Assembly (NCBI RefSeq): GCF_004010195.1
Contig: NW_025213749.1
Span: forward strand, 2,798 to 35,697
From: Chiloscyllium plagiosum
Lineage: Eukaryota
Length of the DNA stretch: 32,900 bases
Direction of reading: 5' to 3'
The notes under the pieces were generated by a model. That model worked only from the letters and a program-made list of their open reading frames with translations. It made no database searches and was not told the origin of the DNA. Both the position numbers and the translations under genes were made by a program. Of this stretch, positions 2,338 through 32,343 are shown piece by piece. Within the stretch, counting starts at the first letter, position 1. Every line of letters starts with the position of its first letter.

Positions 2338-2468
2338 GGAGAAAGTGAGATCTGCAGATGCTGGAGATCAGAGCTGAAAATGTGTTGCTGGAAAAGAGCA
2401 GCAGGTCACGCAGCATCCAGGGAACAGGAGAATCGACGTTTCGGGCATAAGCCCTTCTCCAGGAATGA
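2338..2468 (-). mobile_element. Penelope pseudo-LTR fragment (family A) with degenerate hammerhead motif
   Basis: The minus strand reads attc-CTGGAGA-a-GGGC-ttat-GCCC-GAAACGTC-gatt followed by 'ggatgctgcgtgacctgctgc...ccagcatctgcag'. The same sequence recurs at 4417-4635, 5838-5932, 8245-8376, 11801-12010 and 15850-15910. Confidence 0.8.
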
Positions 2469-2477
2469 CTCTCTCTC

Positions 2478-3492
2478 CCTATTACTGGTTTCACTAGCAA
2501 TGGGCACCGGCAAAAAAAGAGATAATATCTCTATTTGCTCTAAGCTTCCACCCTATACGTCTGAATTCCTGCCATAAATCCGGATGCATTTTCCAACCTT
2601 TCTCATTCGTAAATACGTGGATCAAGTCTTGGGGTGCTCTTTTCCCCCTCAAGGATCTCGAAAACTTCATTGCGACATCACTAACCCTGACACCTGCGAG
2701 GTAACCCATTAAACATGAGTCTCTCTATTTATCACATAATGACCTATCTGTCCCTTTGGCGTTGCATCCTCAATGACGAATGCTCTGCTAATCGCCGCCC
2801 CCCTTCCTTTCCGGGCAACAAGGCAAGACTCTGTGCCAGAGACTTGTACCCCATGGTTTACCTGTGATAAGCTACTCTTCCCAACAATATCCAAAGCAGA
2901 ATAATGTTATTGAGGGGAACGGCTTCGAGGCTACCTGCACTGCCTGCCGGTTCGCTTTCCGTCTCCTGACTGTAACTTTAGAACATAGAAAACTTACAGT
3001 GTGGGAACAGCACCTTTCCACCCAACATGTCCATACCGACCCTCCGAAGATTAACCCCCCCCCCCCCCATATCCACATCCTTATTGCTCTACCTTTCCCC
3101 TGACTAATGCACCTAACACTATGGGCAATTTAGAATGGCCAATCCAACAAACCTGCACATCTTTCGAACGTGGGAGTAAACCGGAGCACTTGGAGAAAAC
3201 CCACGCAGAAGCAGGGAAAACGTGCTGACTCCACACACAGTTAACTGAGGCCGCAATCGAACACGGGTCCATGGTACTGTGAGGCTTCTTGCACCTGATG
3301 TTTGACTACCTCCCACTAACTCCTCTCAATAACGTCTGCCACCTCCCGAGTAATCCGAGGTTCATCCAGCTCCATCTCGACTTGCTTAATGCGGTTTTCA
3401 AGGAGATGGAGTTGGATGCTGCAGTTGAAGTCAGCAGCGACATGACTAATGACCCTTCCCTCCCATATTCTATAGAAGGAACATGCAATTGC
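2478..3492 (-). mobile_element. CR1-clade LINE ORF1 relic (zinc finger, coiled coil, SGNH esterase), interrupted by a SINE
   Basis: Minus translations are IACSFYRIWEGRV...DFNC..QLHLLENRIKQVEMELDE (3290-3492), VTVRRRKANRQAVQ, SRAFVI and GVRVSDV...IHVFTNEKG...QEFRRIGWKLRA (2494-2894). These align with the ORF1 copy at 32344-32900 (GARVRDV...VHVGTNNIG...QELRELGWKLKA). Confidence 0.85.
2978..3286 (-). mobile_element. Near full-length HE1-type tRNA-derived V-SINE
   Basis: The minus strand has a tRNA-like head 'gcctcacagtaccatggacccgtGTTCGAttgc' (B-box), a V-core-like 'gcgtgggttttctccaagtgctccggtttactccc' and a CR1-type tail. It shares 'atggccaat...acctgcaca' with 1351-1507. Confidence 0.85.
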
Positions 3493-3499
3493 TTTTCAA

Positions 3500-5836
3500 A
3501 ATTATGCCACATTCCTCTGTTTGGAGTATCCTCTAAACGTTGAGTTGTCCCAGTCGAATTTGTGATCCTTGTCATCTGTATGATTAGCTACCAGGGATAT
3601 CAGTCCATGATATTTAGTGGGCGCTTGGAGTTCGTGGATGCAGATTGATAATTGTCTGCCTGTTTGTCCTGTATTATATTTCGTGCAGTCTTCGCATGGC
3701 ATATTGTAAATTACGTTTGTTTTGCACAAGGTGGGTGCAGAGTCTTTTGTCCGCATGAGTTGTTGGCTGAGCGTGGCTGCCGGTTTCTGGGCTGTCATGG
3801 ATCCCAGTCTTCGGTGAAGTCTGGCTGTCAGTTCTGAAGATTTTTTTAATGTAATGTATAGAAGCCACTGATTTAGGTTGTGCCATTTCCTCTTCGTGTT
3901 GTCTGATAGGTATCTGCAGATATCGTTGTGGCATACCTGGTCTTGGCAAATACTCTGTAGAGGTGTTCTTTTTCTTCGCTTCTTAGATCGAGAGTGCTGC
4001 AGTGTGATGCAGCCCTTGTGAAAAGTTTCCTCATGCAACGTTTATTTTGTGTGTTCGTGCTGTTGCTGTTGTAGCACAGAAACTGGTCGGTATGCGTGGC
4101 TTTGCTCTCCCCTTTTGTGGTGCATTCATCATTTCGTGTTCTTTCCGTTACAACATCTCAGAATGGGAGTTATTTGTTGGTTACCTCCTCTCTCTGAAAA
4201 CTTACCCTGTGACCATGGCGTTGATAAATTGGAGTGAGTTCACAATTTCTTTTGTCTTCATGATAGCAGGAGTGTCGTCCACGTACCTGACATAGAGCTT
4301 AGGCTGGATTTGTGGGAAGGTTATTTCTTTGTTCCAGGCTTTGAATCACTGCTTCTGCTATGAGCTCAGATTTGGGTGTGCTGATAGGTATTCCATTGAT
4401 CTGTTCTTACAAATGGATCGAGAGTGTGGTGCTGGAAGGTACAGCAGGTCAGGCAGCATCTGAGGAGCAGTAAAATCGACGTTACAAGCTAAAAGCCTTC
4501 ATCAGGAAGGATTAAGTTTTTGTTTTCCAGAAACGTCGATTTTACTACATTTCGGGTGCTGCCTAACCTGCTGTAATTTTCCAGCCGCTCCCTGTCAACT
4601 GTAATCTCGAGCATCTGCAGTCCTCACTTTCGCCTTGCTCTTGCATGTTGTTGTTTGATATGAAGTGTGTCGCCAAGCACAGGCTAGTAATTTGCGTATG
4701 CCATCCTTGTTGATAGGGTCCCCGTCGTGTTTTCTGTTCTGCTAATCCAGAAGTTTGGCTATTGCCTGTCTGTTTCGAACTTGGTCAAATTATGTGAATA
4801 GAACCGTTATGTCAAATGAGTCTATTGCTTGTCTATGATTATGTTCTTGACGTTGTCTAGGAATCCCTGTGATGATTGTATGGAGTGTTTGGGTCCGCAG
4901 AGAATATCTTTTAGTTTTTGTTCAAGCTCTTTTGCCAGTTTACACGATAGAGTTCCAGGTGGTGCCAAAATGTGGCGAAGCAGTACGTCTGGTTTGTGAT
5001 ACTTTAGGTAATCCATAAAATATTGCGCTGTTGTTGCTCCTTGGTTTCATCCTTTGTAGGTCAGTGCTGATTATTTGTCCATTTATTGGAGGTCTCGTCG
5101 TGTGTTGTTAGTTTTATTTGTTACCTGTAGCGTGGGGCGACACTGCTTCTATAGGTAGGTGTCAGTATCTGCAAGTAGTTCTTCTGCTTTCTGAATATGT
5201 TCGATCTTGTCCATGATAACCGTCATTCTGCCTTTGTCCGCTGGTATTATGATTATATTCTTGTCATTTTCGAGTACTATTAGGGCTTCTCTGTCTGTGA
5301 TGTTGACGTTGTTCATTTGTCGTTTCCTTCTTAGTCAGGGTATAACGGTTTGTCAGACTGTTTGCTGTGTCTTTTCAGTTAGTCTGTTAGTTTTGAGCGT
5401 TTATTCCAGTGCGCCTAAAACGTCTGTTCTATTTTTCTTCCTGTAGTTGAGCTCCTTGGCTAGTAGGGCTTTATGTCTGTATCTGGAAGCTATCTGTTGG
5501 AGTGGTTTTTTTGCCAAGTTTGTCGTGTTGTCTTCGCTGATGTTGGTTTGCTTGCACATTTTATCTCATAATGCAGTTCTCTTTCAGGATGAAGATCAAT
5601 TCTGCCCTCTGGGTGTGACCTATTTGATTGGCGTGGTCGACTTCTGATTGATTTTTTTTTTTAAACTCGGGATTTGTGGCACGCGGTTTCTTGCATGGAC
5701 TTGTATATTTTGTTTGGGGCGACTGTAATCGTAATCTGTTTAATCTTGAGACTGTTTTGTCTGAGTATTCCCCTGCTTGTTGCTGGTTGATTGATAATTC
5801 GTATCTGAGACAGAACAACAAGGACTGCATACACAA
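3500..5836 (-). mobile_element. Penelope-like retroelement (lineage 1), decayed RT plus GIY-YIG endonuclease
   Basis: Minus-strand motifs in order: IIIPADKGRMTVIMD (~5205-5255), YGLPK (~5010), SFDITVLFT (~4795-4820), QINGIP...LIAEAV (~4345-4405), RYVDDT (~4270-4290), NVIYNMPCEDCTKYNTGQTGRQL..IHE, HKFDWDN. Many stops and frameshifts. Confidence 0.92.
4417..4635. mobile_element. Inverted pair of family-A pseudo-LTR fragments inserted in the Penelope RT
   Basis: 4417-4508 (gtgctggaa..agcaggtcaggcagcatc..aaatcgacgtt) is the approximate reverse complement of 4528-4590 (aaacgtcgattt..gtgctgcctaacctgctg..ttccagc). RT coding sequence resumes on both sides. Confidence 0.8.
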
Positions 5837-5837
5837 A

Positions 5838-5932
5838 GTCTAGATTAGAGTGGCGCTGGAAAAGCACAATAGGTCAGGCAGCATCCGAGGTGCAGGAAAA
5901 TCGACATTTCGGGCAAGAGCGCTCCATCAGGA
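5838..5932 (-). mobile_element. Family-A pseudo-LTR fragment with degenerate hammerhead
   Basis: The minus strand reads c-CTGATGG-agcgctcttgccc-GAAATGTC-gatt. It is homologous to 2338-2468 and 8245-8376. Confidence 0.75.
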
Positions 5933-6790
5933 CGCTTTGATTATCTTGAAAAGAACAGAAATCGAGAACACACATTGCATCATTGACACCATGCTAACAG
6001 GGTTTAGATTTATGAGAAAGGGAGAAAGCAACAACCAATTCCTATTCTTAGATATGATCGCGCAAAGAACAGAAAACGTTGATAGTTTCATTTACCGATA
6101 CCCAACAGATAATCAAAGCGAAGAGGATATGCCATGAGCTCACTCGCTCGTCTGAGACATTTTACACATTAAACCTTTTTTTTAATAACAAACTTCTCCG
6201 ACAACTGGGATTTATGACACTCACAATCCGACAATCACACTCAGACAAAGACTCACCAGAACAAAAGGACCGATGCCCGTCATGTGCAAGAGAAATATAA
6301 TTTACACGTTTCCATGGAAAGGCTGCACCCAACACTACAGAGTACAAACTGGCAGACGGCCAGCAATCCACACCCATGAACAAAAACACGCCAATATACT
6401 CCACGTCCAGCAGCTTCTAATAAACACACACACACACAGTTCGTGGGAAAATGTCTGCCACCCTTCCAACCCACGTTACACCCACAAAAGCAAAATTGGA
6501 CAAAACTATCAAAAAAAAGAATGCCCAAGCAGACTTTCACGCCAAACCAGACAACCCACACAGGCAAGGGAATACACTTCAAGCTGTCAATAACAATGAC
6601 AGAGCATCACTAATATCCCAAAACCCCTAGAGGAGTTTCACAACCAGCAATTCCAAACGCACACAAAGAGCAGTTCAGACAGAGAGGCATTAGCAAAGAC
6701 ATTGTTCCCACAACAAGTGAATGGAAGAACCTCACCACGTCAGAGGAGACATTAACAGCTACCTTTGAAAAGAAATGGAACCACTGATGT
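5932..6790 (+). mobile_element. Rearranged Penelope (lineage 1) fragments: post-DD RT, GIY-YIG, RT thumb
   Basis: DALIILKRTEIENTHCII...NNQFLFLDM (post-catalytic RT region) and RNIIYTFPWKGCTQHYRVQTGR..IHTHEQ (GIY-YIG, paralogous to 3620-3720). Weaker thumb-like sequence lies at 6500-6790. Confidence 0.8.
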
Positions 6791-7084
6791 TGTTAAGAAG
6801 TTGCATTGTGTGAAGGAACAGGACATTCTGCCGATAACTGTTTTCCAATTTGCATCCTTGTAACTAGACGACTCATTTCCAGATGCATTGTATTTTCCCA
6901 TTTCTTAATCAGTCTTATTGTACAGCATTATTATAAAAATTGTGTCATCCTCAGCTCTGTGAAGAGTATCCATAACTTTCTGGGCAGACTGTACTGTTTT
7001 CGCTTGGTCAGTTTATATTCCATGATATTGCCATAATAATAAACTGTTTGATATTTTTACTTCGAACTGTGCTCTGTGATCTCT

Positions 7085-7440
7085 AAACTATTGGGCAAAT
7101 TTCTCTGACACAAGTGACAAGGACGACGAATTCGACCAGAACAACATAATTATGATAGGACACAATAAAGAAAAGATTGTCAGGGAATTCATAGAAGAAT
7201 GACTTTCAACCACGGACTCCATTAGCAAACACATAGACCGAGACCCAGTATGATGGACATAACAATGAATTACGTCAACCAGCAACCTGAAGCAAAGTAA
7301 CGGAACCAAATAAATTCCACAAGTTACAGTAAAGTAGCACTTCAGAGGAGGCTCCAAAGCACTAAAGATCTCACTTAGACAGGGAAACTAAAACGTCTGC
7401 ACATCAACTTTCTAGCTCGGCAAACATACCCGCAATTACG
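7085..7440 (+). mobile_element. Penelope (lineage 1) 3' end with pseudo-LTR and degenerate family-B hammerhead
   Basis: DKDDEFDQNNIIMIGHNKEKIVREFIEE*LSTTDSISKHIDRDP is the endonuclease C-terminus. It is followed by gca-CTAAAGA-tctcacttagacagggaaact-AAAACGTC-tgc at 7359-7400. Confidence 0.8.
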
Positions 7441-7859
7441 ACAATTGTAGATATTGATTGCGAAGTAGTTATGCAGGCAGTTATGTCTGAAAAATCCTGA
7501 GAAACGGATAGCAAAATAGAAAAGCAGATTGCACCAGTCTCAGATATTAAAAACTGCACATATATCAGTACAGAGAGAAATGAGACATCGGTACAAGAAA
7601 TTGGCAGGCATCTGAGTGTGAGATTAATGAACACATCGTTGGATACCGAGGGATAAAGATAACGGTGTCTAGTGAATATGATAAAAATAAAGACCTGCTC
7701 AGATGTCGTCAGTTCAATAATTCTATTATTGTGGCTAACCATATACCTTTGTCAGACCTGATAATGCAACAATGAAGAAAACTCAGTTTCCTTTGGTTTG
7801 ACATTGATAATGCAATTACAACGTCCGTAAGCGACAGGCAAATGTCTAACTAATTGACC

Positions 7860-8376
7860 TTTAACGTTGTTGAAGTCCACATTGATGCCCTGGGTTTGAA
7901 GTGTTCCGAGTCGGAAGATGAGGCGTTGTTACTCCAGGCGTCTGGAGGTGAGGGAGCGGTGGTGAAGGAGGCCCGGGACCTCCATGTCCTCGGCAGAGTG
8001 GGAGGGGGAGTTGAACAGTTTTCGCATTTCCCCTTCCCCACTTCACCCCAGTTCCAAACTTGTCGCTCAGCACTGTCCCCATGACTTGTCCTACCAGCCT
8101 ATCTTCTTTTCCACCTAAAGACTCCACCCTCCCCCAAACCTATCACCATCCTCCATACCCCACTCACCTACTGTACTCTATGCTACTTTCTCCCCACCCC
8201 CAACCTCCTCTCACTTATCTCTCCACCCTTCAGCCTCTCTGCCTGTATTCTTCATGAAGGGCTTTTGCCCAAAACGTCGATTTTACTGCGCCTCGGATGC
8301 TGCCTAAACTGCTGCGCTGTTCCAGCACCACTAATTCAGAATCTGGTTTCCAGCATCTGCCGTCATTGTTTTTACA
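7860..8376. mobile_element. Penelope-like lineage 2 terminal fragment with inversion
   Basis: 7860-8020 on minus encodes FNSPSHSAEDMEVPGLLH...RLIFRLGTLQTQGINVDFN (GIY-YIG C-terminus). 8020-8376 on plus is a C-rich pseudo-LTR with a family-A motif near its end (ttcatgaagggcttttgcccaaaacgtcga). Confidence 0.82.
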
Positions 8377-9984
8377 TAATAAGTGGTGTTTGTCAGTTTG
8401 GGCTTTCCTCATGTCCCAGCATGTGTCAACCATAACCGTATGAAGCTGCTTGAAATGGCGAAGAGTGAGATGATGGATTTGCATCTCAGCATTGTTCTGA
8501 TCTTCACTGGCATGATTGCGGATTAATGTTTTTGGCTCGACTGCACAGCGCAATGCTTCCGATGTTTAAATTGTTAACCGTGGGAATCAATATGAAAGGG
8601 AGCCAAATAACGAAAGCGCTGTGAAACCAGACAATTGCTTTACCAAAATCAGAGGAGAAGAAAGATGCATTTCCCGGCATCTCCGCTGCATTCTGTCAAT
8701 TTGTGTCTCAGGTTCCAACGAAAGCAAACATTGGATCTATTTCAAAAAGACAAAGAAAACGAGAAATGAAACAACTATGGCCGCCGTTCGTTCAGTGCAG
8801 TGCGTTGCCTTAAAATTCCGGCAGCAGATCAGTATAAATTGGTCGAAACTAAAGGAAACATTGAACCCCACAGAAAAATAAAGAATAACAACTTTCGTGA
8901 ATGTACAAATGGAGGTTTGCGATAGGAATGAAGTTTGAAAGTGGCAACTCAAAATATGATATATTAAAACATTGCTGAGCATGACCAGAGACACCCTTGG
9001 GAACAGCACAATTTCCTCGAAAAAGAACCACAATTGTCAGCCGGTTCGCTGTGAGACATTAAAACAGGTGGTCATGCTCCATTGTCTGGTGAAAATTCTA
9101 ATGGATACAACTGTACAGCAACTGTTACCATTATCAGCGTGATCACAAACTATCGTTTCAGAAGATGATTTGTTAGAATGCAATTACCTAAGAACCCCTG
9201 CTATAAAGCGTAATAATCTGTTACAAGTCCATGTCTTGAAAAGGAACTGAGTGACAAAAAAAATCCGCTCAACTTGTTCTACTAAACCTTATAACAACTG
9301 CAACATAATCAGATTAAATTACGAGTAAACTGAAAAGTAAGGGTTGGCCAAACAATAGAAACAACTACCAACAGCTCAAGTAAAACAAAACAAAATGCAT
9401 ATAGTAGAAATCTGAAACTAAAATAGAAATTATTGCAAGAACTCACTACTTCAGAAACATTACCTCTGTTCTTCTCTGCACGGATACTGCCAGCATTTTA
9501 TCAGCCATGTCTAGTTTTGCAACTGATATTCGTGACTTTGTATAAGTGTGTGGCATTATTCTACATTGCGAGCGAGAAAGAAGAGAGACAGTTCACACAT
9601 GATAAGAATACAAAATAAAGTACCCTAACAGGCACATAAATGGCTGACAAAATCGGATAGTAAATGTTTTCATGAACAGAATCGCTGGTTGTCCCATTAT
9701 CGATAATAGTACGAAAATCGAGTAGCAGCCACAGGAATGATACACGGCTGAGTCAGTGGAAGTAATTATCCATTTATACATACATCATGTCTCCTGTGAC
9801 CAACCCAAATTACATCATTACTATCACTATTTACAACTGTTCAATTACTATACGCAGATAAGTTTAATTTGGCTCCAGTCACTCGAAACAGCCCAGTGTC
9901 CATTAAATACAAGAAATGCTGACAGGCCATCCTGGCAGGTCACGCAAACTGCAAGCATGCCAAGTCATAATGACTTTATGAGGG

Positions 9985-10128
9985 AATTTGCTACTTACTG
10001 GCATTGTGGGACAAACCATTGCAAGTGGTCTGTAGCGATGAAGAAGGCATCTCACCTTCTCCAAGGCAAATAGTATGCTCAATTACTGCTGGCGATCAAG
10101 CAACGCCCAAATAAAGTCCCATGGAATA
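9985..10128 (+). mobile_element. Old LINE-type 3' tail fragment
   Basis: 'ctgtagcgatgaagaaggcatctcaccttctccaaggcaaatag...tgctggc...gcaacgccc' resembles a recalled shark LINE 3' end. It is related in reverse to the tail of the SINE at 28793. Confidence 0.5.
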
Positions 10129-10514
10129 TAACGTGGATCGTTGCACAGAATTGCAAACGATCTCAGTGACATGTTAAAATCATAATCAGTCTCCAATCTA
10201 TATTTACAGTTCCAGTCAGTTTTGGTATCTGACAGAAGTCAGATTTCTGTTTAGATATTATAATAATAATATGAAGGTATTGAAAATAGAGAGGTTTTTG
10301 ACATCCCATCATAATGTTTACTTTCATGTTGATATCTAATCGATTACTTTTTCAGAATTGTATTTGGAATATAATGTGGTGAAAGGCGATTCAAGTTTCT
10401 GGGAAGAATGGAAATGAGACTAAACGTTTCTATTCAAAATAATGGGAAATTTTTAAACATTGTAGTCCATCGATATTTTCATATCAGAAATTTAACATGA
10501 TGGTATATTCCTTT

Positions 10515-10860
10515 TGCGTTCCTCCTTCACACACACATACACACTCACTCAATCTCTCTCTCACGCACACATACGCCCACATAAGCAAACACACTGTCAT
10601 GCATTTGCACACTTTGAGTAACTCACACATTCTTGCAGACACACGCATTCTCTCACAGACGCTCAAATGTCGGGAATTACAAACCCAAGGTCTTACAGAA
10701 TTTTGCAATTGTACACAAATATCTCACAAACATTCAATCAATATCTCTCACTCAAAGGAACGCAACCATAAACTTTCACTGGCTCACAGTTACATATATT
10801 TCCTCACAGTCACACTCACGCTCACTCCCTCACAAATATCAACAAGCAAGCATATGCATC
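10515..10860. repeat. CA/CT-rich low-complexity tract
   Basis: Recurrent cacacacatacacactcactc / ctctcacgcacac motifs; the H/T/S-rich ORFs here derive from it. Confidence 0.7.
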
Positions 10861-11800
10861 TCTGGGAACAGAGGTTATTTTTAAGCTGCTTATGATTTTA
10901 TGTTTAACAGCATTGCATTTGAAGTCAGTTATAAGCAGTTTATAACTTCCTGTTTTCGAGATAAATCAATCTGATCACGAGTTAAAACTCTGATAGGTTC
11001 AGAAAAAAGATGCTTCAACAACTCCATTTGAGTGGTTAACCTGACATGGCATATTTTGTAAATTCATATCACTTTGTTTCAAATTTGGATTGCTGGCAAG
11101 GCCCTGCTAAAGCACTACGTTATTTCATAAGATTGATTTCAAAGAGGTTCTGCAATTTGCATTTTCGTCAATAGAAACTAATGTATACTTTCTAGATGAG
11201 TTATCCATACCTGCTTCTGCAAACAAACTGTCATTTCTCAAATTCAATGTCGATTCAATTAAAACATCTTTTGATCCATTAACCATTCCCGTGTGGTGAT
11301 AGAATTCCAGATGCAAATAGAAGTTTTCTTCATTCATGCATCCATCGAGTTAGTTGATATTGTCCTGCCTCAGCCGAGCATCTAAAAAGCACTGGCTAGT
11401 TTCCGTCTGGATTTCATTTGCAGAAGTCTGAGAGATGTCCAAAGGGTTAGGTGTGTCTTAATCTGCAAACCCGAAATGAAGGTCACACAGCACTGTCATT
11501 TTCTCTTTTAAAACAGTAAATAGAAGAATGAGTGGGGCTTGGCAATCATTGTCCATTTGAATGCAACGTTGATTCAACAGAACGATAGCTGCAAAATGAG
11601 AGTTCAAAGTTCAAGGACTGGAATGACACAAACGTGGCGTCAATTTTAAATGATCTGAAGTGATGAAATATTTTCAATATAATAATCAAAACTGCGGAGA
11701 CATATAAGGAGAAATTCACCATGCTTCTTTTTTTCTGGAATTAAGACTTGAATAACCATCTAACAAATTAGCAGTACATTGAAAACCTTTCAACGATAAG

Positions 11801-12010
11801 CAAGTGAGGTCTGCAGATACTGGAGATCAGAGTTAAGAGTGTGGTTCTGGAAAAGGCCAGCAGGTCAGAAAGCATCCAAGGAGTAGAAGAATCGACTGTT
11901 GGAGCATATGCCCTTCATCATTATTCCTGATGAACTGCTAATGCCCGAAACGTCAATATTCCGAATCCTCGGATGCTGCCTGAACTGTTATGCTTTTCCA
12001 TCAGCATACT
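11801..12010. mobile_element. Stand-alone inverted pair of family-A pseudo-LTRs with two hammerhead motifs
   Basis: The left arm 11801-11922 matches 2338-2468. The right arm 11923-12010 is its reverse complement and contains CTGATGA (11927-11933) and GAAACGTC (11947-11954). Confidence 0.85.
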
Positions 12011-12239
12011 TACAGCATTGAAAGCATTTCAAGACTGACAGGAAAGAACAAAGTCTCCCAGCGACCTGCCTTGACACATTATGATTCTGTCATTCTCTGA
12101 AATTGATTAGGGGAAAAAGGAGGTTTGACATTTTCATTGACTGAGAGATCAAGAAGTACCCTGAGCAACAGAAAAAAATGGGAGATTTTGCCTGGGGGTG
12201 GCTTTTAAATAAGTTGATTCAAGTGTAAGTTATATATAG

Positions 12240-13975
12240 TCCCCATAAAACTGAAGGATGGTAGATTTCAAAAACCATGGATAATAAAGGAAATTGTAAG
12301 CTTCATCAAAAAGAAAAGAAATGAAGCATACAATAGGTCTACGGGGCTACAAACTGACGAAGCCCATGAGGAGTCTGGTGAAATTAGTAAGAAATCAAGC
12401 ATTGAAATGGAAAGCTAAGTCGGACTGTGAAATATCTTTAGCAAAGAGGGTCAAGGATGATCCTGCTGTTTAACTGTATATTAGACCGAAACAGGGCAGC
12501 GAGCGAAAGATAAGGTCCACTCAAGGAAAAAGGAGATAAGTTATGCATAGAGCCACCAGCAGTGACAGAGATCTTTAATAAGCACTTTGTATCGGTATTC
12601 AGAAAGAAGAACGGCATGACTGATTTTGACGACATGAATGAGTGTGTAAGTACTCCAGTGAATGTCAACATATTGAAGAGGGAAGTTCAGGTTATCCTAA
12701 ATTGCATTTCAGTAGACAAGTCTCCAGGGCCAGATTGGTTCTATCCCATGTTGCTTTAAGAGACAAGAGAAGGACTAGCTATTGTATTAGCAAATATCTA
12801 CACATAATGTTTGACTGCAGGCGACGGTCCAGAGAACTGGTGGTTCACCACTGTTGTTCCCATGTTTAAGAAAGGAAGCAGGAGTAATCCAGGAAATGCT
12901 CGGGCAGGGACCCTGTTTTCTGTGGTAGGGAAGCTCTTGAAAAAGATACTGGGGGACAAGGTATATGCTCTTTCGGAAGAAAATGGATTCAATATAGCAG
13001 GCAGCATGGTTTTGCATAGGGAAGGGCATGCCTTACCTGACTGAATTGTTTGAAGAAGAAACAAGGATAACTGATGAGGGACTTGCCATGGATATATTTT
13101 ATATAGGAAACAGTTTTTTGTACCAATCTGCCAGTAAACGCTTTACTGAAGTCCCACATGCAGTTTGGTACAAAGACAAATCACGAGACATTCAGGGTGG
13201 GTTGGCTTGAAGGGTACAAAGCTAAATTGTCAGTGAATACAAAGGGTAGCGGTGGAAGTGCATTTTTCATAATGGAACCGAAACTGGTCGTGCTCCACAG
13301 TGATCAGTTCCTGGGATCTCTGTAGTTTGTAACATATATAATCTTCGAGACTTGATTGACAAGTTTGCAAATGTCATGAAGATTAGTATAGTTATTGATA
13401 TTGTCGATGTTTGTGAAACGATGCAACAGAATATAAATAGATTGACGATTTGGGCACCGGTATGTCAGATGGAAATTAATCCAGACAAACGCGAGGTGAT
13501 GCATTTTGGAATATATAATTTAGATGTGCGTTTTATTGAAAATAGCAGAATGCTTTGCAACATTAATGTACTGACGGACCTGGGGGTGCAATTGCACGTT
13601 CTTTAAAAGTGGCAATACAGGTGGCCAAGACAGTTGAGAAGGCATACTGTATGCTTGCCTCCAACAGCCGGGACATGGAGTGCAAGAGCTGACAAAACAT
13701 TTTGCAGCTAGGTAAAACACTTGTCAGGTCGAATTTGTAGGACTGCGTGCTGTTTTCGTCGCCACACGAACAGAAGCACGTAGAAACTTTGGAGAGAGTC
13801 CAGAGAAGATTCATCAGAATGATGCCTCGTCTCGACGGCACTGCCTATGAGGAAAGTTTAAAAAGGCTCGGATTGATTTCAGTAGTAAGACAGCGATCGA
13901 GTGGAGACCTGATTATAGAATTAAGGTCTACAAAACGATAAAACACATAGATAGGATCGACTGTCAAAAATGAGG
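12240..13975 (+). mobile_element. Highly decayed CR1 LINE ORF2 (RT)
   Basis: EIFNKHFVSVF, DKSPGPDWFYPMLL, VVPMFKKGSRSNPGN, SVVGKLLKKIL, IDKFANVMKI, QMEINPDKREVMHFG and LERVQRRFIRMMP occur in canonical order. Confidence 0.9.
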
Positions 13976-15527: not shown

Positions 15528-15840
15528 AGAAACTACAAGAACTGTGGTGCTCTAAATCAGAAACATAAACAGAAACAGAAATTTCTGGAAAAGCTCAGTT
15601 GTTGTGGTGGCATCCGTGAAGAAATTTAGAGTTGATAATTCCAGTGCGGTGACCACTGTTCAGAACTGATGTTGTGAAGAAAAACGTATTTTTTAATGCA
15701 GTGTGGGGAGTAAGGAGTAAGGTGGGGTTGGAACCTGAAAAGATGTGAGAACAATTTGAAAGATAATATCTGGACAGGAGAGAGAAAAGATATTGAAGGA
15801 GAATGTAAGAAGTTAACAATGAGTTGAAAAGCGCGGCAAT
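15528..15840 (-). mobile_element. Penelope pseudo-LTR fragment (family C), degenerate
   Basis: 'aagaactgtggtgctctaaatcagaaac..tggaaaagctcag...ggcatcc...gagtt...cggtgacc...cagaactg' is homologous in reverse to 19410-19510. Confidence 0.6.
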
Positions 15841-16399
15841 GGCAAAACACAGCACATCAGACAGCATCCGAAGAGCAGGACAGTGGAAGTTTTCACGTCC
15901 TTCATCAGGAACGTGAAGGTGAGATAAAGGTCTCTGGGAGATAAATAGGAAGTGTGGTGCTGGGGAAGTTACCTACATGTAGGTGGGTGTTGATGGTGAT
16001 AGCTCTGAGCATGGGGTGGAGCAGATAAGTGGGTAGGAAGATGGACAGTTGGGGCAGGTCAAGCTGACGGTGCCGAGTTAGACACTTAGATCTGGAAGCG
16101 GATGAATGAATGTCAGATGAGGAGACGAGTGAAATCGATTTTGATGCAGTGTGTTTGGAGGTTCCCAAGTCAGAAGATGAGGCAGTCACCCTCCAAACAT
16201 CGGATTTGGAGATGGAGGAGGTCGAGGGCTCCCATATCCTTGGTGGAGTGGGAGGAGTAGCTGTAGTGGCCAGCCACAGGACTTTGTGGTTGTTTGTTGT
16301 GCGTGCTCCAGAGATATTCTCTGAAACATTTTGTGAGTTGGCCTCCTGTGTGCCGAAGGTCGTGGAGGCCACATCCAGATCAAGGAAACAGTCGATTAG

Positions 16400-16953
16400 T
16401 TCTTTATGGATGTAGGTTTGCTCGCTGAGCTTGAACGTTTATTTCCAGACGTTTCGTCACCCTACTAGGGAACATCTTCAGTGGGCCTCAGGCGAAGCTC
16501 TGCTGAAAGTTCCTGCTTTCCATGTATATGTTTGGCTTTTGGGGAGTTCGCGATGTCATTTCCTATTGTGATGCTCTTTCCTGTGATGAAGTCACGTTCT
16601 GTTCCTTTTTTCAGGGGGCGGTAGATGTGGTCTAACTCGATGTGTTAGTTGATAGAGTTCCAGTTGGAATACCATGCCTCTGGGAACTCTCGTGTGTTTG
16701 TTTGGTTTGTTCTAGGATGGGCAACACATCCATCCTGGACAACATTGAAGATGTTACTTAGTAGAGTGATGAAACGTCTTCAAGCCAAACAAAGACACAC
16801 CCGAAAATTCCTAGAAACGTGGCATTCCAACCAAAACTCTATCAACAAACACATCTACGACGTCCTGAGAAAAGAAACAAGATATAAGAGAGTAGCAAAG
16901 GAACCTACATCCAAAACCTCAACCTGAGCTACAAATCTTCTCAAAACTCGCTC
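16400..16953. mobile_element. Penelope lineage 1 terminal fragment in inverted pseudo-LTR arrangement, nested in the lineage 2 element
   Basis: 16400-16721 (minus) and 16722-16953 (plus) both encode the endonuclease C-terminus (QTKQTHTREFPEAWYSNWNSIN vs QAKQRHTRKFLETWHSNQNSINKHI). Both carry 'aacctacatcca' near their outer ends. Confidence 0.85.
16445..16484 (-). ncRNA. Minimal type-I hammerhead ribozyme (PLE-associated), intact core
   Basis: Minus RNA: CCA-CUGAAGA-U-GUUCCCU-AGU-AGGGUGAC-GAAA-C-GUC-UGG. It has intact CUGANGA and GAAA, a 7-bp stem II with one bulge, a 3-bp stem I (CCA/UGG) and palindromic ACGU at stem III. Predicted cleavage is between 16448 and 16447. Confidence 0.75.
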
Positions 16954-18734
16954 TGAGGTGCTAATATGTGGAGTAAAATCTCAGCTGAATATGGAAGGTT
17001 ATGTTGGGGCCTTGGACAGAGGTGAGGACAGAGGTGTGGGCGCAGGGTTTGCACCTCTAGCAATGGTAAGGGAGGGTGCAGTGAGTGGAGGGTAGGTTTT
17101 TCGCTACGTGGAACTAATAAGGGAGTCATGGAGGGAATAATCTGCACGGGATACTGATGGGGTGTTGAGGGAAATATATCACAGGTGGTGCAGCCTGACT
17201 GTATATTATCGGGAATAGCGAAGAATGATGCAGTGTATCGAGAGATTGGTGAGGGGAAAGTTGCAGACCACGGGTGGCTGAGGGTTCTGCTAGTTGCAGT
17301 TAGTCGGGAGGAGTTAAATGATAGAGGAATGTGAAGTAGAGGAGATGCATTGCAGAGCATCTTTGACCGTATAGGAGGGGAAATTGCGGTCCTTGAAGTA
17401 GGCATCATCTTATATGTCCTGGAGAGGAACTTCCCCTCCTGGGGCCAGATACGGCACTAGCGTATGAATCGCGAGGGAGGATGTCAATTTTAAAGGATGG
17501 GGCGAGGAGGACGTTGAGCCCAGATAGCTGTAGGAGTCAGTGTGTTTCAAGTATATGTCTGTTTTGAGTCGGTCCCTAGAAATTGAAACAGAGAGGTCCA
17601 GGAAATGGAAGGTGTCTGAGAGGTTGCAGTTGAACTTGGAGGTCACAGAGTGGAACAAATTTCATGAAATTAATGAACTATTGAACTTCCTGTGGGAGAA
17701 CGATGTGTCAGATTTGGCAGAGGAATAGGTGGAGATTGCCGCCAGAGTAACTGCAGAAGCTGGAAAATTCCATGAACCTGACTAAAAATGACAGCATAGC
17801 TGGGACGAATGCCAGTGCCCATGACTGCTATTCCCCTCTGTAGGAAGGTCAGATTCGAAGTTGAATTTGTTGATGATGAAGACGCGTTCAGCCAATCGAA
17901 TGAGTGTGTCTGTGGAGGTGAACTGGTTGTCTCGGCGGGAGATGACGAATCTAAGAACTCGGAGATCTTCGTCATTGTGGATGGATGTGCACAGTCAATG
18001 GATCTCCATGGAGTCCATTGTGTTGAGAAGTCTTTGGGACCCGGGGAAACGAAAGTTATGTAGCAGAACGAGGACATGCTTGGAATTCTGAATATAGTAG
18101 GAGAGTTTCTGGACCAAGTGGGACAGAAAGGTGTGAGGGTGTGATGAGATAATTTCGTTGAGGCAGGAGCAGGTGGAGACAACAGGTTGACCAGAGCAGC
18201 CAGGTTTTTGAATTCTAGGGAACAGATAGAACCAGACGGTGCGGGGCGCCAGGATTCTTAAGTCAGAGGCTGTGAATTAGAGATCACCTGAAGTGATGAG
18301 GTTGTGATGGTTTGGAAGATGATCGTTTGATGAAGGGAGTTGCGGTCGCAAACGAGCAGGCAATGGGTTTAGGTGTCCGTGAATTGGTGCCTCACCACAA
18401 GTGTCTACAGTTTGGTGTGCCAAATGACCACTGCACCGCGCTTGTCCACTAGTTTGACGGGAACGTTTAGATTGGAGGAGAAGGAATAGAGCGCAGTATG
18501 TTTCATGAGTGAGTTGTTGGAGTGGGTGAAGGAGCTGAGCGGTTAATGTGCTCAATGTCATGGTTGCACTCAGAGGTGAATAAGTCGAGGGCAGGTCACA
18601 GACAAACACAGCGTGTGGAATTGCATTCGACGTGATCACAAAACATGGTGTAAGGGTATGGGAGCTGGGACATTAAAGAATTCAAGCTCGAAAGTTATCG
18701 AATTCTCTATTCAGTCCTGAAAGGCCACAGGCTC

Positions 18735-19510
18735 TGTAAAGACTGGTCCCTCCGGTGCACCCTGATCCACTTTTCATTCTCTCCCAACACATTCTCCTCC
18801 TACAGCCCAACGGCACCTGTCCTGCAGTCAGCAAACATGTATCACTTGTCCATTTACCGACTCGCTCCTCAGGACCTATGGGCTCAAACAGACCTTTCAG
18901 GTGAAGCATTGTTTTAACTGCACATCACAAAATTGAGGTCGTCTCGACAATGGGGAAACAAGTGCTTGACTGTGTGACACCTCACGGAACGCCTATATTC
19001 CTCCTGCAACAATGAGCCTTAGTTTCAAGACGCCTGCCACTTCTAGACATTACCTTGTTCGCCGGCTAAGGTGAGTTGCAGTGCTCCAGCAGTGCTGTGA
19101 ATATAATACCTCATTATCCGCTTGGAGACACTGCAGACTTCAGTGCTCAATGTCGGTTCAAAAGATTTCGTGCTTGAACTCTACGCTGTCCCAGACCTGA
19201 ATCCCAAACACATTCTGTTAATACACACAACACATTGCCAGAATTAACAGACTCCATTAACATGTATTCCATCAACTGACAAGTTTGTTATCCAATGTGT
19301 TCGACTACTCTTCTCTGTCTTTGGATTCCATCTGCACCAATCATTTACCCATTGCCTCCGTATCCTTATTGTATCTTTTTCTTTAAAAACGGCATGTTCC
19401 GAGTTACCAGCAGTTCTGACTAAGGTTCACTGCAATGGAAATAACTTTGATTTCTCTTCATGGATGATGCCAGATCTGCTGAGCTTTCCGAGCAATTTAT
19501 GTTTCTGGTA
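18735..19510 (+). mobile_element. Penelope-like lineage 2 3' fragment (GIY-YIG plus family-C pseudo-LTR)
   Basis: CITCPFT...YGLKQTFQVKHCFNCTS...NGETS...LIIRLETLQTSVLNVGSKDF, then 'cagttctgactaaggttcac..ggaaataact...gatgccagatctgctgagcttt'. Confidence 0.75.
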
Positions 19511-20574
19511 CAATAAGTTATAATTTGGTGAACAAAACGGGCAAATTCGAGCAAATAGAAAAAAATAAGGAAAATCTGAACATATTGTCACTGATATTGA
19601 AAATGAAGCAACCTACATAACTCATGAGAGTTTACAGAGCTTTCAGATGTAGAGGTGCCTAAGTGTTCTGCATGATCCACCACCGGTTCAGATATAGCTA
19701 AAACAAACTGCTCACTAAATTTAATATGATGCTCTAATTTGTCAAGTGCTACTAAGTCGGGAAACTATGTTTTAGTTATGCAAGGCAGTTTTAAGGTCAG
19801 GTCTGCAGTACTTTGTACAGCATTATCGATTTATCGACTGTGCAAAGGCATTAAGTGTACTTTACATATTCTACTCCAAACCAACACTTGCAATGAGAGA
19901 ATTATTATTTTTTGGTCACAAATGGAACTGGCGAAGTTTGAACATTTAAAAGAGTTAAATGCTTCTGGAATGAAACATATAGTGTTCTGTGGAATACTGA
20001 TAATTTAGATAACTGGAAGATGCTTTCTCATATGAGGTAAGTCAGAAATATTAATTTAAAAATGAGTTGTCCATTTATAACATAAATAACGCTATTCCCT
20101 TTTCTTCTCTCGCATGATACAAATTCTCAGGAAGTCTCTTCCTAAAAAACGCCTTACAGGCTGGAAAACCACTCCTACTCCTAATTCATTCATTCATTTG
20201 AATCTTCTCCACTGTGAACAATCAGTCTTTGCATCTCTGTGTGTATGGGCTCGTCCTCTGATGTTTCCAAACTTCTCAACCATCCTTATCAACACTTCTT
20301 CTATTACATTGGATGGAAATTCTACTCGTTGGAGTTGTTTTACATTCCTCATTCGTTAGAACTACAGTATGTTTTAGATCTAGAATGAAATGAATGAAAA
20401 TTACTACGTTAAATTACTTACATTGATAAAAATTGAGAAATAAATATTGAAAGGTGAGAGAGGTTGAACAAGGACTAAGAATCTCCTTCACTGCTTCACT
20501 AATTCCCCTTTTTCACACCAACTTTAGCTCACCGTGTTGTTAAGCGCTGATTTTTTTCAAAGCCAAAGTAATAT

Positions 20575-21935
20575 CATACAACATAGAACACAGAACATTA
20601 CAGTGCAGTACAGGCCCTTCGGCCCTCGATGTTGCGCCGACCTGTCATATCAATTTGAAGCCCACCTAACCTACACTATTCCATGTAGGTCCATATGATT
20701 GTCCAATGACGACTTAAGTGTCCTTAAAGTTGGCGAATCTACTACCGTTGCAGGCAAAGCATTCCATACCCTTATTACTCTCTGTGTAAAGAAACTACCA
20801 GTGACATTTGTCCTATATTTTTCACCCCTCAGTTTAAAGCTATGTCCCCTCGTGCTCGCCATCAACATACTTGAAAAAAGGATCTCCTTGTCCACCCCAT
20901 CTAACCCTCTGATTATCTTATATGTCTCTATTAAGTCACCTTTCAGCCTTCTTCTCTCCAACCAAAACAGCCTCAAGTCCCTCAGCCTTTCCTCGTAAAA
21001 CCTTCCCTCCATACAAGGCAACAACGCAGTAAATCTCGTCTGCACCCTTTCCAAATCTTCCACTTATTTCTTACAATGTGTTGACCAGAACTGTACGCAA
21101 TATTCCAATTGCGGCCGCACCAGAGTTTTGTACAGATGCAGCATAACGTCATGGCTCCGGAACTCGATCCCTCTATTAATAAAAGGTAAAACACTGTATG
21201 CCTTCTTTATAACTCTATCAACCTAGGTGGCAACTTTCAAGGATCTGTGTACCTGGACATAGAGATCTCTCTGCTCATCTGCACTACCAAGAATCTTACC
21301 ATTCGCTCAGTACTTTGCATTCCAGTACTCCGACCAACGTGAATCTCCTCAAACTTGTCCGCATTAAACTCCATTTGCCATCTCTCAGCCAAGCTCTGCA
21401 GCTTATCCATGTCTCTCTGTAACCTATACCATTCTTCGTCACTATTCACAACTTCACGACCTTAATGTCGTCTGCAAATTTACGAACCCACCCCTTCTAC
21501 GCCCTCATCCAGTTTATAAAAATGACGAAAAGCAGTGGACGCAACACCGACTCTTGTGGTCCACCACGAGTAACTGGACTCTAGGATGAACATTTCCCGT
21601 CAATGACTACCCTCTGTGTTCTTTCAGCAAACCAATTATTGATCCAAACTGCTATATCTCCAACAATCCCATTCCTCCGCCTTTTGTACAATAGCCTACT
21701 GTAGGAACCTTATCGAACGCCTTGCTGAAATCCATATATACCACATCAACCGGTTTACACTCATCTACCTGTTTGGTCAGCTCCTCAAAGAACCCAATAA
21801 CGTTTGTGAGGCACGACTTACCCTTCACAAAACCGTGCTGACTGTCCCTAATCATATTATTATTTCTAGATAATTATGAATCTTATCTCTTATAACCTTT
21901 TCCGACACTTAACCAACAACTGATGTAAGGATTGG
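20575..21935 (-). mobile_element. 5'-truncated CR1 LINE (HER1-like), least decayed copy in the window
   Basis: IRDSQHGFVKGKSCLTN..VDVVYMDFSKAFDKVP, WQMEFNADK, LERVQTRFT...FFTQRVIRVWNALP, a 3' stem-loop 'ggcccttcggcc' and a (TTCTATG)-like tail at 20575-20597. Confidence 0.95.
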
Positions 21936-24118
21936 CAGTGTCTATTGCGCAGGTACATCTCCTGCATGGTGAATTATAACAGCAGAAATCCTACAACTAG
22001 CATACAAAGTCATGTTTTGAAAAAACAGGATATTTGGAAATTAGTGAGGAAGTCTTTTTAATGACCACATGATAACCCTGATTTGATGTGATTGTCAAAA
22101 GAACAAATTGAAGCATTACTATTATTTCTTTTTTAAAAATAAGTGGTTTAAAGTACATGATGAGGAGCTGGAATGCACCACCTGTGCTTGTGCTGGAAAT
22201 TTGTGATGTGATAGCACTGTTGGATAAGCAACTGAGTGAGTAAACGAAGAAAGAGCTGAACACTGGCAGGCGAGATTAATTTTATTCTTGCTGAACAGAG
22301 ACGACACTTGTTGATTAATCAATAAGACAGCCGTTGCATTGCAAGTATGCAAGGACGATATCATACTTTAAATGATGGCACTCAGATAAATGGAGCAGCA
22401 AGTATGAAACTCGAATGGCGTATCCCTGAGTGGGAACTCAAATTCTAAGGATTCATTATGGAACAATCACCAGCGAACGACACAAAGTGATACCTCAAGA
22501 GTTGGTATATGGATATTGATGAAATACTTTTATGAATATTTACTGTTGAATCCAAGTAAGTTTGCTTCTTCAAATAGATCACATCGGTCCAATAGAATCT
22601 CAAAGACCAATATATTCCACACATATGTGTAATTTAAGAAGCGTCTTCACATGTTTGTTCAATTTGTAAGTAAGAAAAGAAAATCAGTAATTTTCAGGCA
22701 ACAATTTCTGAGCAAAAACCACAACGGATATAAAGCAAAAACCCCGGGGATGTAGCACCTTACATTTGAATTCATACGTAGTCTCTGCAGCAGTGAACCA
22801 TCTAAATCAATTGAGGAAAATGTGTTGAACCACTTAAAACAGCCCAGAAAGATCCTTGCTGGAGTTCCTGTTTAGAGTATGCAGCGATTGAAATGAAACA
22901 AGTGAACAAAGTGAAGCCTACTTCTTTTTTTGGGTACTGCGAGTTTCCAAGGTTAATATTATTTTCAACCTTTTGCACATTTCCAAGTTGTGATATTATC
23001 CTGGTTAATCAATTCTACGAAGTTATCTGCAAGATGTTATACTGTGGCTGGCAATGATTTTGCACACTTCGTGCATTCCAGGTGTATTGCAGTTGTTCAA
23101 ATGTATAAACTTTGACTCAATCAATAAGTCAGGTTTCGCTGGTGGAAGGTGTCAATTGGAGTTTCTGTCATTGTCGAAGTGCAATAAGTTTTAAACACTG
23201 ACTGTGTTGAATTTTGTGACCCAGACTTCCATGTCTTGGTCCAAATGTTTGACAATGCAGATTTGTATTCAGTGTTGGATACTACATTGTATTTTGTTTC
23301 AGTAAAAAAAAAATCACTGCAAAGATGCTTTATTAGTAAGTAATTTCCTATAACTGGTACGTTTCCAAGATTATGTTTGTCACCGCTGTCAAGGTTCAAC
23401 TCTTTTTTTTCTGAACTGGATAATGATAATGATCTGAATGACGATTTCCCTTTCATGTAACAGTTTACAATAAAAATAATCAATTGTTCGTGATTAATGA
23501 TTGAACTGTTGCAATCAAAATGCTTAGATCAGTCAGAAATGTCCTGCAGCTATGTGTATGACTATACTAAAGAGACATATAGATTTAATATTCTCTTTTA
23601 CTTCCGTATCACTAATAATAATAATAAGACATTTCTTCCTTCTTGAAACCAGATTCCCTGAAATCTGCTTCCTCTGCACACCAGACCACAAGACATTGGA
23701 CTCACACTATAAGGAGCAAAGATACGTGCTTCTGTCGTCCATTTCCCTTTCAGACCATGTCAGACGCCACATGGCTGAAACTTTCAGGAAATGAAACTTT
23801 TTTTAAAAAAACTAAGACTATATCTGCACAAATCCGGAACTATTGCAGCAATTTGATTGCTGCCCAATTTCTCCCAATCATGTCCCAAAGCTAAATTCCA
23901 TCGATTCATTTTACAATCGATTCGTTATATTACTTTTGCACACCATTCCACTTTGGGCCTCCTCCAGGGATGGGAGAAAGTAGAGAAGTGAGTTTATGCA
24001 GGTTTGTCGTGTCACGAGTGGCAGAGTTAAGTTCAATATGGAAGGTCTTCTCCTGAGCAAAGGGAATTCAAAACTAGGGCGCATAGACTTCTTTTATTTT
24101 AGAATTAGAATTCCTACA

Positions 24119-24152
24119 GTGTGGAAATAGGCCCTTCGGCCTATTTCCACAC
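24119..24152. repeat. Perfect 15-bp inverted repeat formed from a SINE/LINE 3' tail
   Basis: gtgtggaaataggcc-cttc-ggcctatttccacac, preceded by the tail 'tagaattagaattcctaca'. Confidence 0.9.
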
Positions 24153-24659
24153 ATCCTTCAATTTCCTCATCCAAGTCATTTATAAGCAATAAAATGTGCA
24201 AATCATTTCTTTATTCCAATTTCCCAGGTATTCCAATCTGAATTCAAGATGATTTCCAAGTCGGGCGTTTATTTTTTTCAGTTGTAGCTACATGGACATT
24301 CATCACACCACTTGTCAGACATAATATAATCAGACATGTAACGGGCTTTACCACTGCGGCACGAGATCCATGTTCAATTTCAAACTGTGCCAGAGGTGTG
24401 TCACAATTTATTTGCAAAGTAACTTTAAAAAAGTACATAAGGCGTGTGTTGGGGCTTGTTTCCTGAAGATGTCAGGAGTATCCAAAAGGCAAACTGAGCA
24501 CCCGCGTTCACAACAAACATCTATCAATTATTACAAGTGGATCTGGAGTACTTTCCATCTCCGGGGAATTCCTTTTTTATGAATGGACGACAGTGCCTGA
24601 GAAAATTCTGACTGCATTAAGCGTTTCTGTGTAAATAAAAGTAAGACCTGCGGAAACAG

Positions 24660-24860
24660 GAATTATGAAACGAAAATATAGTGGTGCTGAAGTAATTCAG
24701 GAGGTAGACACAGCAGAAGGAACTTCCAAGTCCCGTCACTCTTCTGCAGAACTCATTTGGAGAAATGGAGAGGGTTTACTGAAGTAAAACGTTAACTTTG
24801 CTTTCTCTCCACATACGCTGTCAGAACTGATGAATTTCAGCAATACCTTCTGCTTGTGTT
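24660..24860. mobile_element. Degenerate inverted pair of family-C pseudo-LTR fragments
   Basis: The left part (tgctgaagtaattcaggagg...tctgcagaact) opposes the right part (aaaacgttaactttgctttctctccaca..gctgtcagaactgatgaattt), which resembles 19440-19500. Confidence 0.5.
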
Positions 24861-25479
24861 TAAGTTTTTCTTCTCTTTACAAGACAAACGAAGTTTGGCA
24901 GATAGTTTTGAGTGTAAAAAGTGTCATGAAATCAGCATGATTAACAATTATGAAATCCCAGTCCAAAGAATGGTTTGTGTTTGTACCATTAACCTTCATG
25001 GGGAGTTGACCAACTCTCATACTATCTTAACCCATGGCAAAACCCATTCTTTGGGGGAACAATTGCTGAGAAGTTGCTTACAACTTGCGGCTATTACTAG
25101 AGATTAGAAATAAATTAAAGTTAATATACATGTCTGTGGTTCAACAGCAGATCTTCCAAAAATTGGAGAGAGACACATAAGCAGATATGTAATCAAATGC
25201 AAATATGTGTGAGAGAAATATGTTGCCGTTGAGGAGCATTTCAACTTTGTTGACATAAACTGAGACCATCTTCACGTGAAAGGAGTCAATGGGGGCAAGA
25301 TTTAAGATATGTCCAGTAGACGTTTAATGCCAATACATAGATCGTCCTTCGAGGAATGTGATAGCGTTATAGGTAGCTATAGGGATTAATACTGGTCAAG
25401 AGTTTGACGTTTTTGTGGATCAGTATTTTGGGGATAGTGACGAAAACTCAGTAAATTCCAAATTCGTTCTTGAAATGCA

Positions 25480-32212: not shown

Positions 32213-32343
32213 TTGAGTGGGTGTTTTCTGGACCCCAGGCCTTACAAAGTAGGTCCTCCCTCCCATCCTACTCCTCTAACCTAACTTTACAGTCCACAGG
32301 TAAGCTACTCAGTGTTCTTGTTTTGGAGATTAAGTGAAGAGTA

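Follow-up and report, generated by a model that had tools for sequence, protein, structure and literature searches.

The question raised by this locus is why about a dozen hammerhead-like motifs lie in a single 32,900 nt stretch of the genome of Chiloscyllium plagiosum (contig NW_025213749.1, positions 2,798 to 35,697; the whole stretch is called the window in the following), and whether motifs of this kind cut RNA within or across the three families, A, B, and C, into which a first-pass annotation had sorted them. The reading that we favor, with a probability of about 0.8, is that the motifs are decayed 3' ends of pseudo-long terminal repeats (pLTRs) of Penelope-like elements (PLEs), of Neptune type for family A and likely for C, and of Poseidon type for family B. 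Each family would carry a minimal type-I hammerhead of known kind. Cleavage likely takes place in dimers of the same family, probably with the help of a protein, and is predicted not to take place between families.

For each family, a profile was made from 30 search loci, using genomic copies whose cores are intact, and was applied with a cut-off of 20 bits. The genome searched comprises 3.56 Gb, and the window lies on a contig of 35.7 kb. The profiles recovered 14 remnants of at least 20 bits in the window (eight of family A, three of B, and three of C), seven on each strand, and no match in 962 kb of reversed sequence. The window motifs are therefore not due to chance, and the motifs of three families seen by the first-pass annotation, which had assigned no strands, were recovered at their places. 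A weak fifteenth remnant, a very decayed family C end at 9443-9531 (+), reached 18.6 bits. At the family level, A, B, and C all possess the CUGANGA and GAAA boxes and the NUH site, on which the annotation had made its interpretation depend. Stem II begins with G10.1-C11.1 after one unpaired base, again at the family level and in 1 of the 14 window copies, and this first pair was fixed by the search patterns for A and B. Helix III is the palindrome ACGU without a loop in each of the three families, as had been noted. The stem-I arms differ and nevertheless pair, as had likewise been claimed: GCA/UGC, CCA/UGG, AGUU/AACU, and UC/GA are all present in window copies.

Both catalytic boxes are intact in only two window copies, at 11927 on the plus and at 16481 on the minus strand, and the former, a family A copy, has lost stems I and II. 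The strict descriptor (both boxes, at least three contiguous stem II pairs, ACGU, and NUH) was passed by one copy, the family B copy at 16481; core and stems I and II are kept together in 1 of the 14 only, and the other 13 are dead. The Rfam scan of the window contained no hammerhead family among 10 matches at E values up to 5, all of them due to chance, and none at the gathering score. This is not surprising, because the motifs have no loop 3.

As a background, we used one hundred 10-kb stretches at round coordinates on the 17 largest contigs (961,918 non-N bases). They hold 253 remnants (164 A, 70 C, and 19 B), or 0.263 per kb, which extrapolates to about 0.9 million PLE hammerhead ends in the genome. 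The density in the window was 0.43 per kb, and 14 or more remnants in 32.9 kb were obtained by resampling with P = 0.061. For a stretch of 22.5 kb, P was 0.011, but its limits had been drawn round the hits afterwards. A special cluster in the window was thus ruled out against this background (P about 0.06). The descriptor, with at least two stem-I pairs, was passed by 42 of 248 background copies (A 38/161, B 4/17, C 0/70), so that the window with its 1/14 is, if anything, more decayed than average; intact C copies are scarce (1/70 in the background). Exact core patterns were found genome-wide 21,234 times for A, 8,798 times for B, and 3,274 times for C (controls 0, 2, and 20), and any core with both boxes and ACGU-H 169,238 times compared to 2,373 for the reversed pattern. 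The window is of little importance in itself, since ends like these occur about once per 4 kb, while the genome with its roughly 170,000 intact cores is an unusually large natural reservoir of the motif.

The assignment of the families to PLE lineages started from the window frame 3505-4041, which as a query matches a large family of endonuclease domains. All 14 Poseidon-type endonuclease loci examined (the window's own locus excluded) are followed by a family B hammerhead on the same strand. Of the long copies, 35/42 in family B are preceded by a Poseidon-type peptide and 19/31 in family A by a Neptune-type peptide; a peptide of the opposite type was seen once in each of the two families, and the rest match nothing. 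Among 11 long C copies, one matches a Neptune-type peptide. The pLTR position downstream of an open reading frame (ORF) with reverse transcriptase (RT) and GIY-YIG domains was thus found for A and B, and for C in this 1 of 11. Published systems are cited here and below from extracts of the papers. A CX2-5CxxC linker before GIY-YIG separates Neptune/Nematis, where it is present, from Penelope/Poseidon, where it is absent (PMC8557442). ORFs upstream of A (L021, L030) have a linker C-x4-C-x2-C before the GIY-YIG motif, a decayed one is found in the window at 16985-17077, and the B-linked ORFs have none. By this motif, and not by a tree, family A would be placed on the Neptune/Nematis side, and our label Neptune-type covers either. 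Pfam matches of the linked ORFs were weak (RVT_1 with 29.4 bits at a cut-off of 29.6, GIY-YIG with E = 0.0034), and nothing useful was obtained from 10 window frames, whose ORFs are too decayed. The C tail is similar to the A tail, which together with the one long copy makes it plausible that C belongs to the lineage of A. The annotation had taken the motifs for minimal hammerheads of PLE pLTRs, which agrees with A following Neptune-type and B following Poseidon-type ORFs. Its assignment of B to one PLE lineage and of A and C to a second one holds for B and A and is no more than plausible for C.

The 5' ends of the copies point to the start of the transcript. Scorable 5' ends were available for 146 background A copies, after 18 of the 164 had been dropped (edges, N, no reference). 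Among 113 copies that reach the 5' edge of the core, 78 break within -12 to +6 of C3. The hazard of a break is 0.036 per nt in this span compared to 0.003 upstream and 0.008 downstream, inside the core. A control restricted to the same subfamily gave the same picture: of 32 A copies with an identity of 95% or more to a long copy, 24 break in the span. An inverted partner adjoins 44 of the 78 breaks. Family C copies break likewise in 25 of 30 cases, a weaker result with few long C references, while none of 14 B copies breaks at the 5' edge of the core. Breaks are most frequent at -4/-3. This is the A in TCATTC or TCAGTT, with which stem I begins, and both sequences presumably fit the initiator consensus. 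A start of the A and C transcripts about 4 nt before the core is likely on this pattern. Internal promoters and initiator-like sites occur in pLTRs (PMC2377424, PMC3846280). Reverse transcription starts in the tail (PMC11167929), and its run-off at the 5' end of the RNA would explain the short copies.

Evidence on cutting came from chimeras with U6. In the search pattern the end of U6 was fixed, while the junction could lie at each of 31 positions in the tail of A or C. All seven U6-A junctions fall on position 1.1, the scissile bond, with seven different A tails and 24-101 matching U6 bases, whereas ordinary 5' breaks in that span fall on position 1.1 in only a few per cent of cases. Two of 30 U6 loci fetched (of 48) run directly into an A tail at this position. 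In chimera L274 the same junction is also present in the inverted arm, which favors a joined RNA as template over a template switch. Hammerhead cleavage leaves a 5'-OH end. U6 has a terminal cyclic phosphate and is ligated by RtcB to RNA with a 5'-OH (PMC6789731). The junctions at the cut site suggest, indirectly, that family A cleaves in vivo, in the germ line. The U6/LINE-1 chimeras formed by RtcB ligation (LINE, long interspersed element; Moldovan et al. 2019, PMC6789731) are of the same build: the 3' end of U6, including its U tract, is linked to the RNA of a retroelement, and the product was retrotransposed. In the cases described here a PLE takes the place of LINE-1, and the junction, which is variable with LINE-1, is constant at the hammerhead scissile bond. 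By eye, 11 of the 30 U6 loci (L246, L253, L254, L258, L263, L266-L271) continue into the head of a tRNA-like short interspersed element (SINE), and two (L260, L264) run into Neptune-type ORF sequence.

Stem I was compared between subfamilies. The outer pair 2.3/1.3 of family B is G-C in 7, C-G in 5, U-A in 2, and unpaired in 4 of the 18 distinct rows among 30 copies. Its covariation score was 0.229 compared to 0.156, was reached by 0 of 500 shuffles, and exceeded slid controls (0.03-0.11); the rows are related copies chosen for an intact core and represent about three independent changes. Measures based on pair counting and pair type were not above shuffles (190/500 and 425/500). Between A2 (AUUC/GAAU) and C (AGUU/AACU), two of the four stem-I pairs are changed on both sides. 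As judged from these aligned copies, stem-I covariation between subfamilies is real, as the annotation had claimed. In the B core, an AUG at A9 opens 195 codons in a tandem copy, so that stem II of B is also coding. In the Anolis element PAc the AUG lies at the same place (PMC11167929).

In the reading that we favor, two RNAs would pair through ACGU as stem III, and from the geometry of the fold each core would then receive the arm with its cut site from the other RNA. The differing stem-I arms would act as family locks. For A and C, transcription would begin about 4 nt before the core, and reverse transcription from the tail would run off the 5' end and give the many copies of 90-130 nt, often head to head; a cut after GUC would take off a capped leader of 32 nt, at a point 136 nt ahead of the ORF. 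In B the core itself contains the AUG, and the start codon would be lost with the cut. Most insertions would derive from uncut RNA, and cutting would be recorded only in the rare U6 chimeras, in which U6 was likely ligated to the 5'-OH product.

If the partner RNA supplies the cut site, the 5' arm of a core must pair with the 3' arm of the partner. The annotation had considered heterodimer cleavage across families conceivable on account of the shared ACGU palindrome. That A, B, and C RNAs cut one another in this way is in our opinion quite improbable, as the shared palindrome is not sufficient when stem I must also form between both RNAs. Contiguous trans stem-I pairs were counted on six natural copies: there are none between A and B or between B and C in either direction, and none for an A core on a C site. 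In homodimers, A1 forms 2, A2 4, B 3, and the C copy used 6 pairs. Some pairing across subfamilies is left: a C core forms 4 pairs (two of them G-U) with the A1 site and 2 with the A2 site, and the B subfamilies form 2-3 pairs among themselves. Mixed read-through RNAs can also exist, since 15 of 33 same-strand pairs within 1 kb in the background are cross-family. But the window holds no two intact copies, intact C is rare, and mismatched arms mean that the observed covariation works against mixing. Cross-family cutting is therefore predicted to be blocked, except for a C core on an A site.

Pairs lying head to head at a distance of up to 24 nt are likewise family-pure, with 9,263 A-A pairs (about 216 expected by chance) compared to 10 A-B pairs (about 16 expected), although this purity tests shared insertion and not ribozyme pairing. 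The A-C pattern gave 15 matches, and the 10 viewed were eight C-C or C-like pairs and two A-C pairs. Adjacent inverted partners in the background were 61 A-A, 18 C-C, and 1 C-A. Co-insertion across families was discarded, as A-B junctions are no more frequent than expected by chance and most of them are nested. By eye, a short A copy is inserted into the B core in 6 of the 10 A-B pairs (L279, L280, L281, L283, L285, and L286; about 1360-1540 in sense orientation), at nearly the same bond and with a target duplication of 12-15 nt over the first catalytic box. A target preference is possible, with the total number at chance level. At L057:1455-1540, an inverted A tail ends directly at C3 of a B core. 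Back-to-back copies cannot dimerize in cis, because one of them is antisense; the read-through RNA of the pair at 11800-12020 folds as one long hairpin (z -5.56).

Two other explanations concern the function and the origin of the copies. Active elements might keep the motif for a different role, as a start-site or promoter element, a protein-binding hairpin, or a start-codon context, with cutting incidental or absent. Most copies derive from uncut RNA, the 5' arm of A and C doubles as what we take to be an initiator-like sequence, and stem II of B is coding, all of which would fit this view. So would the reports that PAc ribozyme mutants still insert in vitro and that no RNA-seq read ended at the cut (PMC11167929), and that activity in vitro is low (PMC4209133). 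We nevertheless consider it unlikely, since two distant PLE lineages whose stems differ have retained the two boxes and NUH, covariation is seen in stem I, and the U6 junctions mark the scissile bond in 7/7 cases. The short copies could also represent a separate non-autonomous, self-propagating element, similar to a retrozyme or a SINE, instead of truncated PLE products. Their very high copy number, sharp 5' boundary, and preferred 3' ends would agree with such an element, and retrozymes do derive from PLE pLTRs (bioRxiv 10.64898/2026.07.22.740005). However, there is a continuous series from the short copies to full pLTRs and ORFs, and their tails share 95% or more identity with long copies. 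They occur singly or head to head and not as head-to-tail arrays of intact units, and the pair junctions vary from case to case. A separate element is hardly credible on these grounds.

Several results speak against our reading of PLE ends that cut as same-family dimers. With the patterns used, no U6 chimera was found for B (0) or C (0/7). A hammerhead fold was obtained for none of six monomers. Stem I is also missing from the constrained fold of the A homodimer, but constrained cofolding is of little use for A, since the energy model cannot deal with so short a stem I. In the commonest A, stem I consists of only 2 contiguous pairs, with a U-U mismatch at the third position. The covariation comes from few subfamilies of related intact-core copies, with B stem II also coding, and the clades of A and B rest on the linker motif. 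Plain 5' ends do not pile up at the cut site, and this candidate signal was dropped: only 9 of 144 breaks fall in +28 to +34. An extra G at -5, as would be derived from a cap, was not convincing (66 G/34 A in a hand count of the first 100 matches listed, 12/8 among solo copies, and 2/4 in an unbiased sample). Start site, expression, and cleavage are all deduced from DNA.

The claim of the annotation that such hammerheads cleave as dimers was put too strongly, although the type of ribozyme was named correctly. Dimeric and trimeric constructs of one Schistosoma motif had low activity (PMC4209133), and the Anolis PLE ribozyme cut only in the presence of protein (PMC11167929). The weak stem I of A suggests, by analogy to PAc, that the protein of the element helps. 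We offer a more far-reaching version only tentatively, as it is more doubtful than probable. The Neptune-type hammerhead at the first bases of a capped RNA could serve in the germ line as a decapping switch restricted to two RNAs from one family. Stem I would be a lock whose key was altered by compensatory changes and which leaks in a single case and direction (A RNA cut by old C cores), and the U6 chimeras would be the first in vivo record of cleavage for an animal PLE minimal hammerhead.

The kind of motif is already known, and the window is ordinary. The minimal hammerheads of metazoan PLE pLTRs (PMC4209133; Cervera and De la Pena 2014) share the type-I topology, CUGANGA and GAAA, the extra base between 9 and 10.1, G10.1-C11.1, the palindromic 15.1-16.1 without loop 3, and the short stem I; there, too, a genome holds several families, and most copies stand alone or lie on opposite strands. 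Copy numbers given there are about 4,000 for coelacanth and about 9,000 for Xenopus, compared to 169,238 cores here, counted with different descriptors. In contrast to these hammerheads, family A has a stem II of 4 bp and only 2-4 stem-I pairs. Anolis Poseidon PAc (Frangieh et al. 2024, PMC11167929) has, like family B, an AUG at the start of stem II, a cut downstream, and a tail beyond, and its extension on both strands and its predicted protein dimer fit the head-to-head pairs described here. PAc was assayed, cuts only with protein, and gave no RNA end at the cut, whereas here U6 chimeras mark the cut in the Neptune-type family A and from DNA alone. The inverted-pLTR insertions of endonuclease-bearing (EN+) PLEs (PMC8557442, PMC3846280, PMC2377424) also show 5'-truncated copies, an adjacent inverted copy, an optional tail, and an initiator-like or internal pLTR promoter; a pile-up of 5' ends within a few bases of the first paired base of the ribozyme, as seen here for A and C, is not mentioned in the extracts. 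Animal non-LTR retrozymes (bioRxiv 10.64898/2026.07.22.740005) likewise have a type-I hammerhead from PLE pLTRs and were found in the one cartilaginous fish sampled, but they are head-to-tail arrays of units with complete ribozymes, of which there are none among the 14 window copies.

The interest therefore lies at the family level, in a start site at the first base of the ribozyme, in cleavage recorded by U6, and in stem I as a family lock. In the extracts of PMC4209133 and PMC11167929, in vivo cutting by animal PLE minimal hammerheads and its purpose are left open. A literature search by title and start of abstract, incomplete for subscription papers and supplements, returned nothing on shark PLE hammerheads, heterodimeric hammerheads, or U6-Penelope chimeras. 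Exact predictions follow from the U6 junctions, the pile-up of 5' ends, and the trans stem-I table: the start of the RNA, its cut site, and the combinations of RNAs that can cleave one another.

In the window, the first remnant is a family A pLTR end of about 120 nt at 2349-2468 (-) with 81.9 bits; its core has C3 at 2462 and is broken by A6 to G, and the copy starts about 6 nt before the core as judged by eye. Two decayed Poseidon-type pieces face away from each other. The piece at 3490-5508 (-) consists of RT, thumb, and endonuclease parts with stops and frameshifts, and no family B end was found after it. It contains two A ends back to back on opposite strands, forming the head-to-head pair at 4.5 kb: the left arm at 4425-4508 (-) has lost the GAAA box, and of the right arm at 4524-4621 (+) only the 3' half is present, the GAAACGUC half. 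A further A end at 5833-5932 (-), broken by changes of A9 and the palindrome, has its 5' break at -2. The second Poseidon-type piece, the 3' part of an ORF at 5931-7307 (+), leads to a family B end of the GCA/UGC subfamily at 7350-7441 (+), in which both core boxes are mutated. A Neptune-type pLTR at 8031-8371 (+) carries a family A hammerhead at about 8251-8278, also with both boxes mutated (profile match 8240-8371, 114.2 bits), and its inverted partner is a C-terminal fragment of a Neptune-type endonuclease at 7871-8015 (-). The A pair at 11.9 kb, likewise back to back, consists of a left arm at 11809-11921 (-) with a broken core and a right arm at 11919-12021 (+), in which the boxes (11927, 11947) are intact and stems I and II broken.

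The Neptune-type element spans 15834-18276 and is split by a B insertion in inverted orientation (about 16400-16950). Its decayed ORF at 15984-18276 (-) comprises RT (17500-18276), the Cys linker mentioned above, and endonuclease (15984-16379), and it is upstream of a family A end at 15834-15911 (-) with damaged stem II and GAAA box. Of the minimal hammerheads in the window, only one is intact; it lies in the insertion, in a family B end of the CCA/UGG subfamily at 16402-16492 (-). Its core spans 16481-16448, an AUG begins inside the core, the cut is predicted between 16448 and 16447, and a Poseidon-type C-terminal fragment lies upstream at 16591-16734. The inverted partner is a B remnant at 16741-16789 (+) with a changed C3, and another Poseidon C-terminal fragment (16781-16855) adjoins just past the cut site. 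Over 16741-16950 (+), this remnant is fused about 1 base past the predicted cut to the Poseidon C-terminal fragment, followed by B tail; this single case could represent a template jump to a cut RNA end.

Three C ends complete the list. Those at 15559-15671 (-), heavily decayed, and at 19407-19511 (+), with a decayed core, have kept the AGUU/AACU arms, and at 24787-24869 (+) the 3' half alone was recognized by the profile. Breakpoint estimates were left out for the copies at 2468, which matched its own locus, and at 15671, because of decay. PLEs are known to hold introns; the A and C tails past the cut site, e.g. window 8295-8325 (+), resemble a branch point with pyrimidine tract and AG.

Other repeats were also seen in the window. 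Long degenerate simple-repeat tracts, CTCTGTGA-like and GACT-like, occupy 1-2335 and 25490-28400. Copies of a tRNA-derived SINE lie at 2985-3290 (-), 1360-1510 (-), and 24105-24145 (-) and presumably resemble the elasmobranch HE1 type. The segments at 12250-13960 (+), 20585-21930 (-), 29440-30590 (-), and 32030-32900 (+) we take to be decayed pieces of CR1-type LINEs. In the last of these, a short segment is duplicated in tandem, and one frame weakly matches GDSL esterase (Pfam, E = 0.016).

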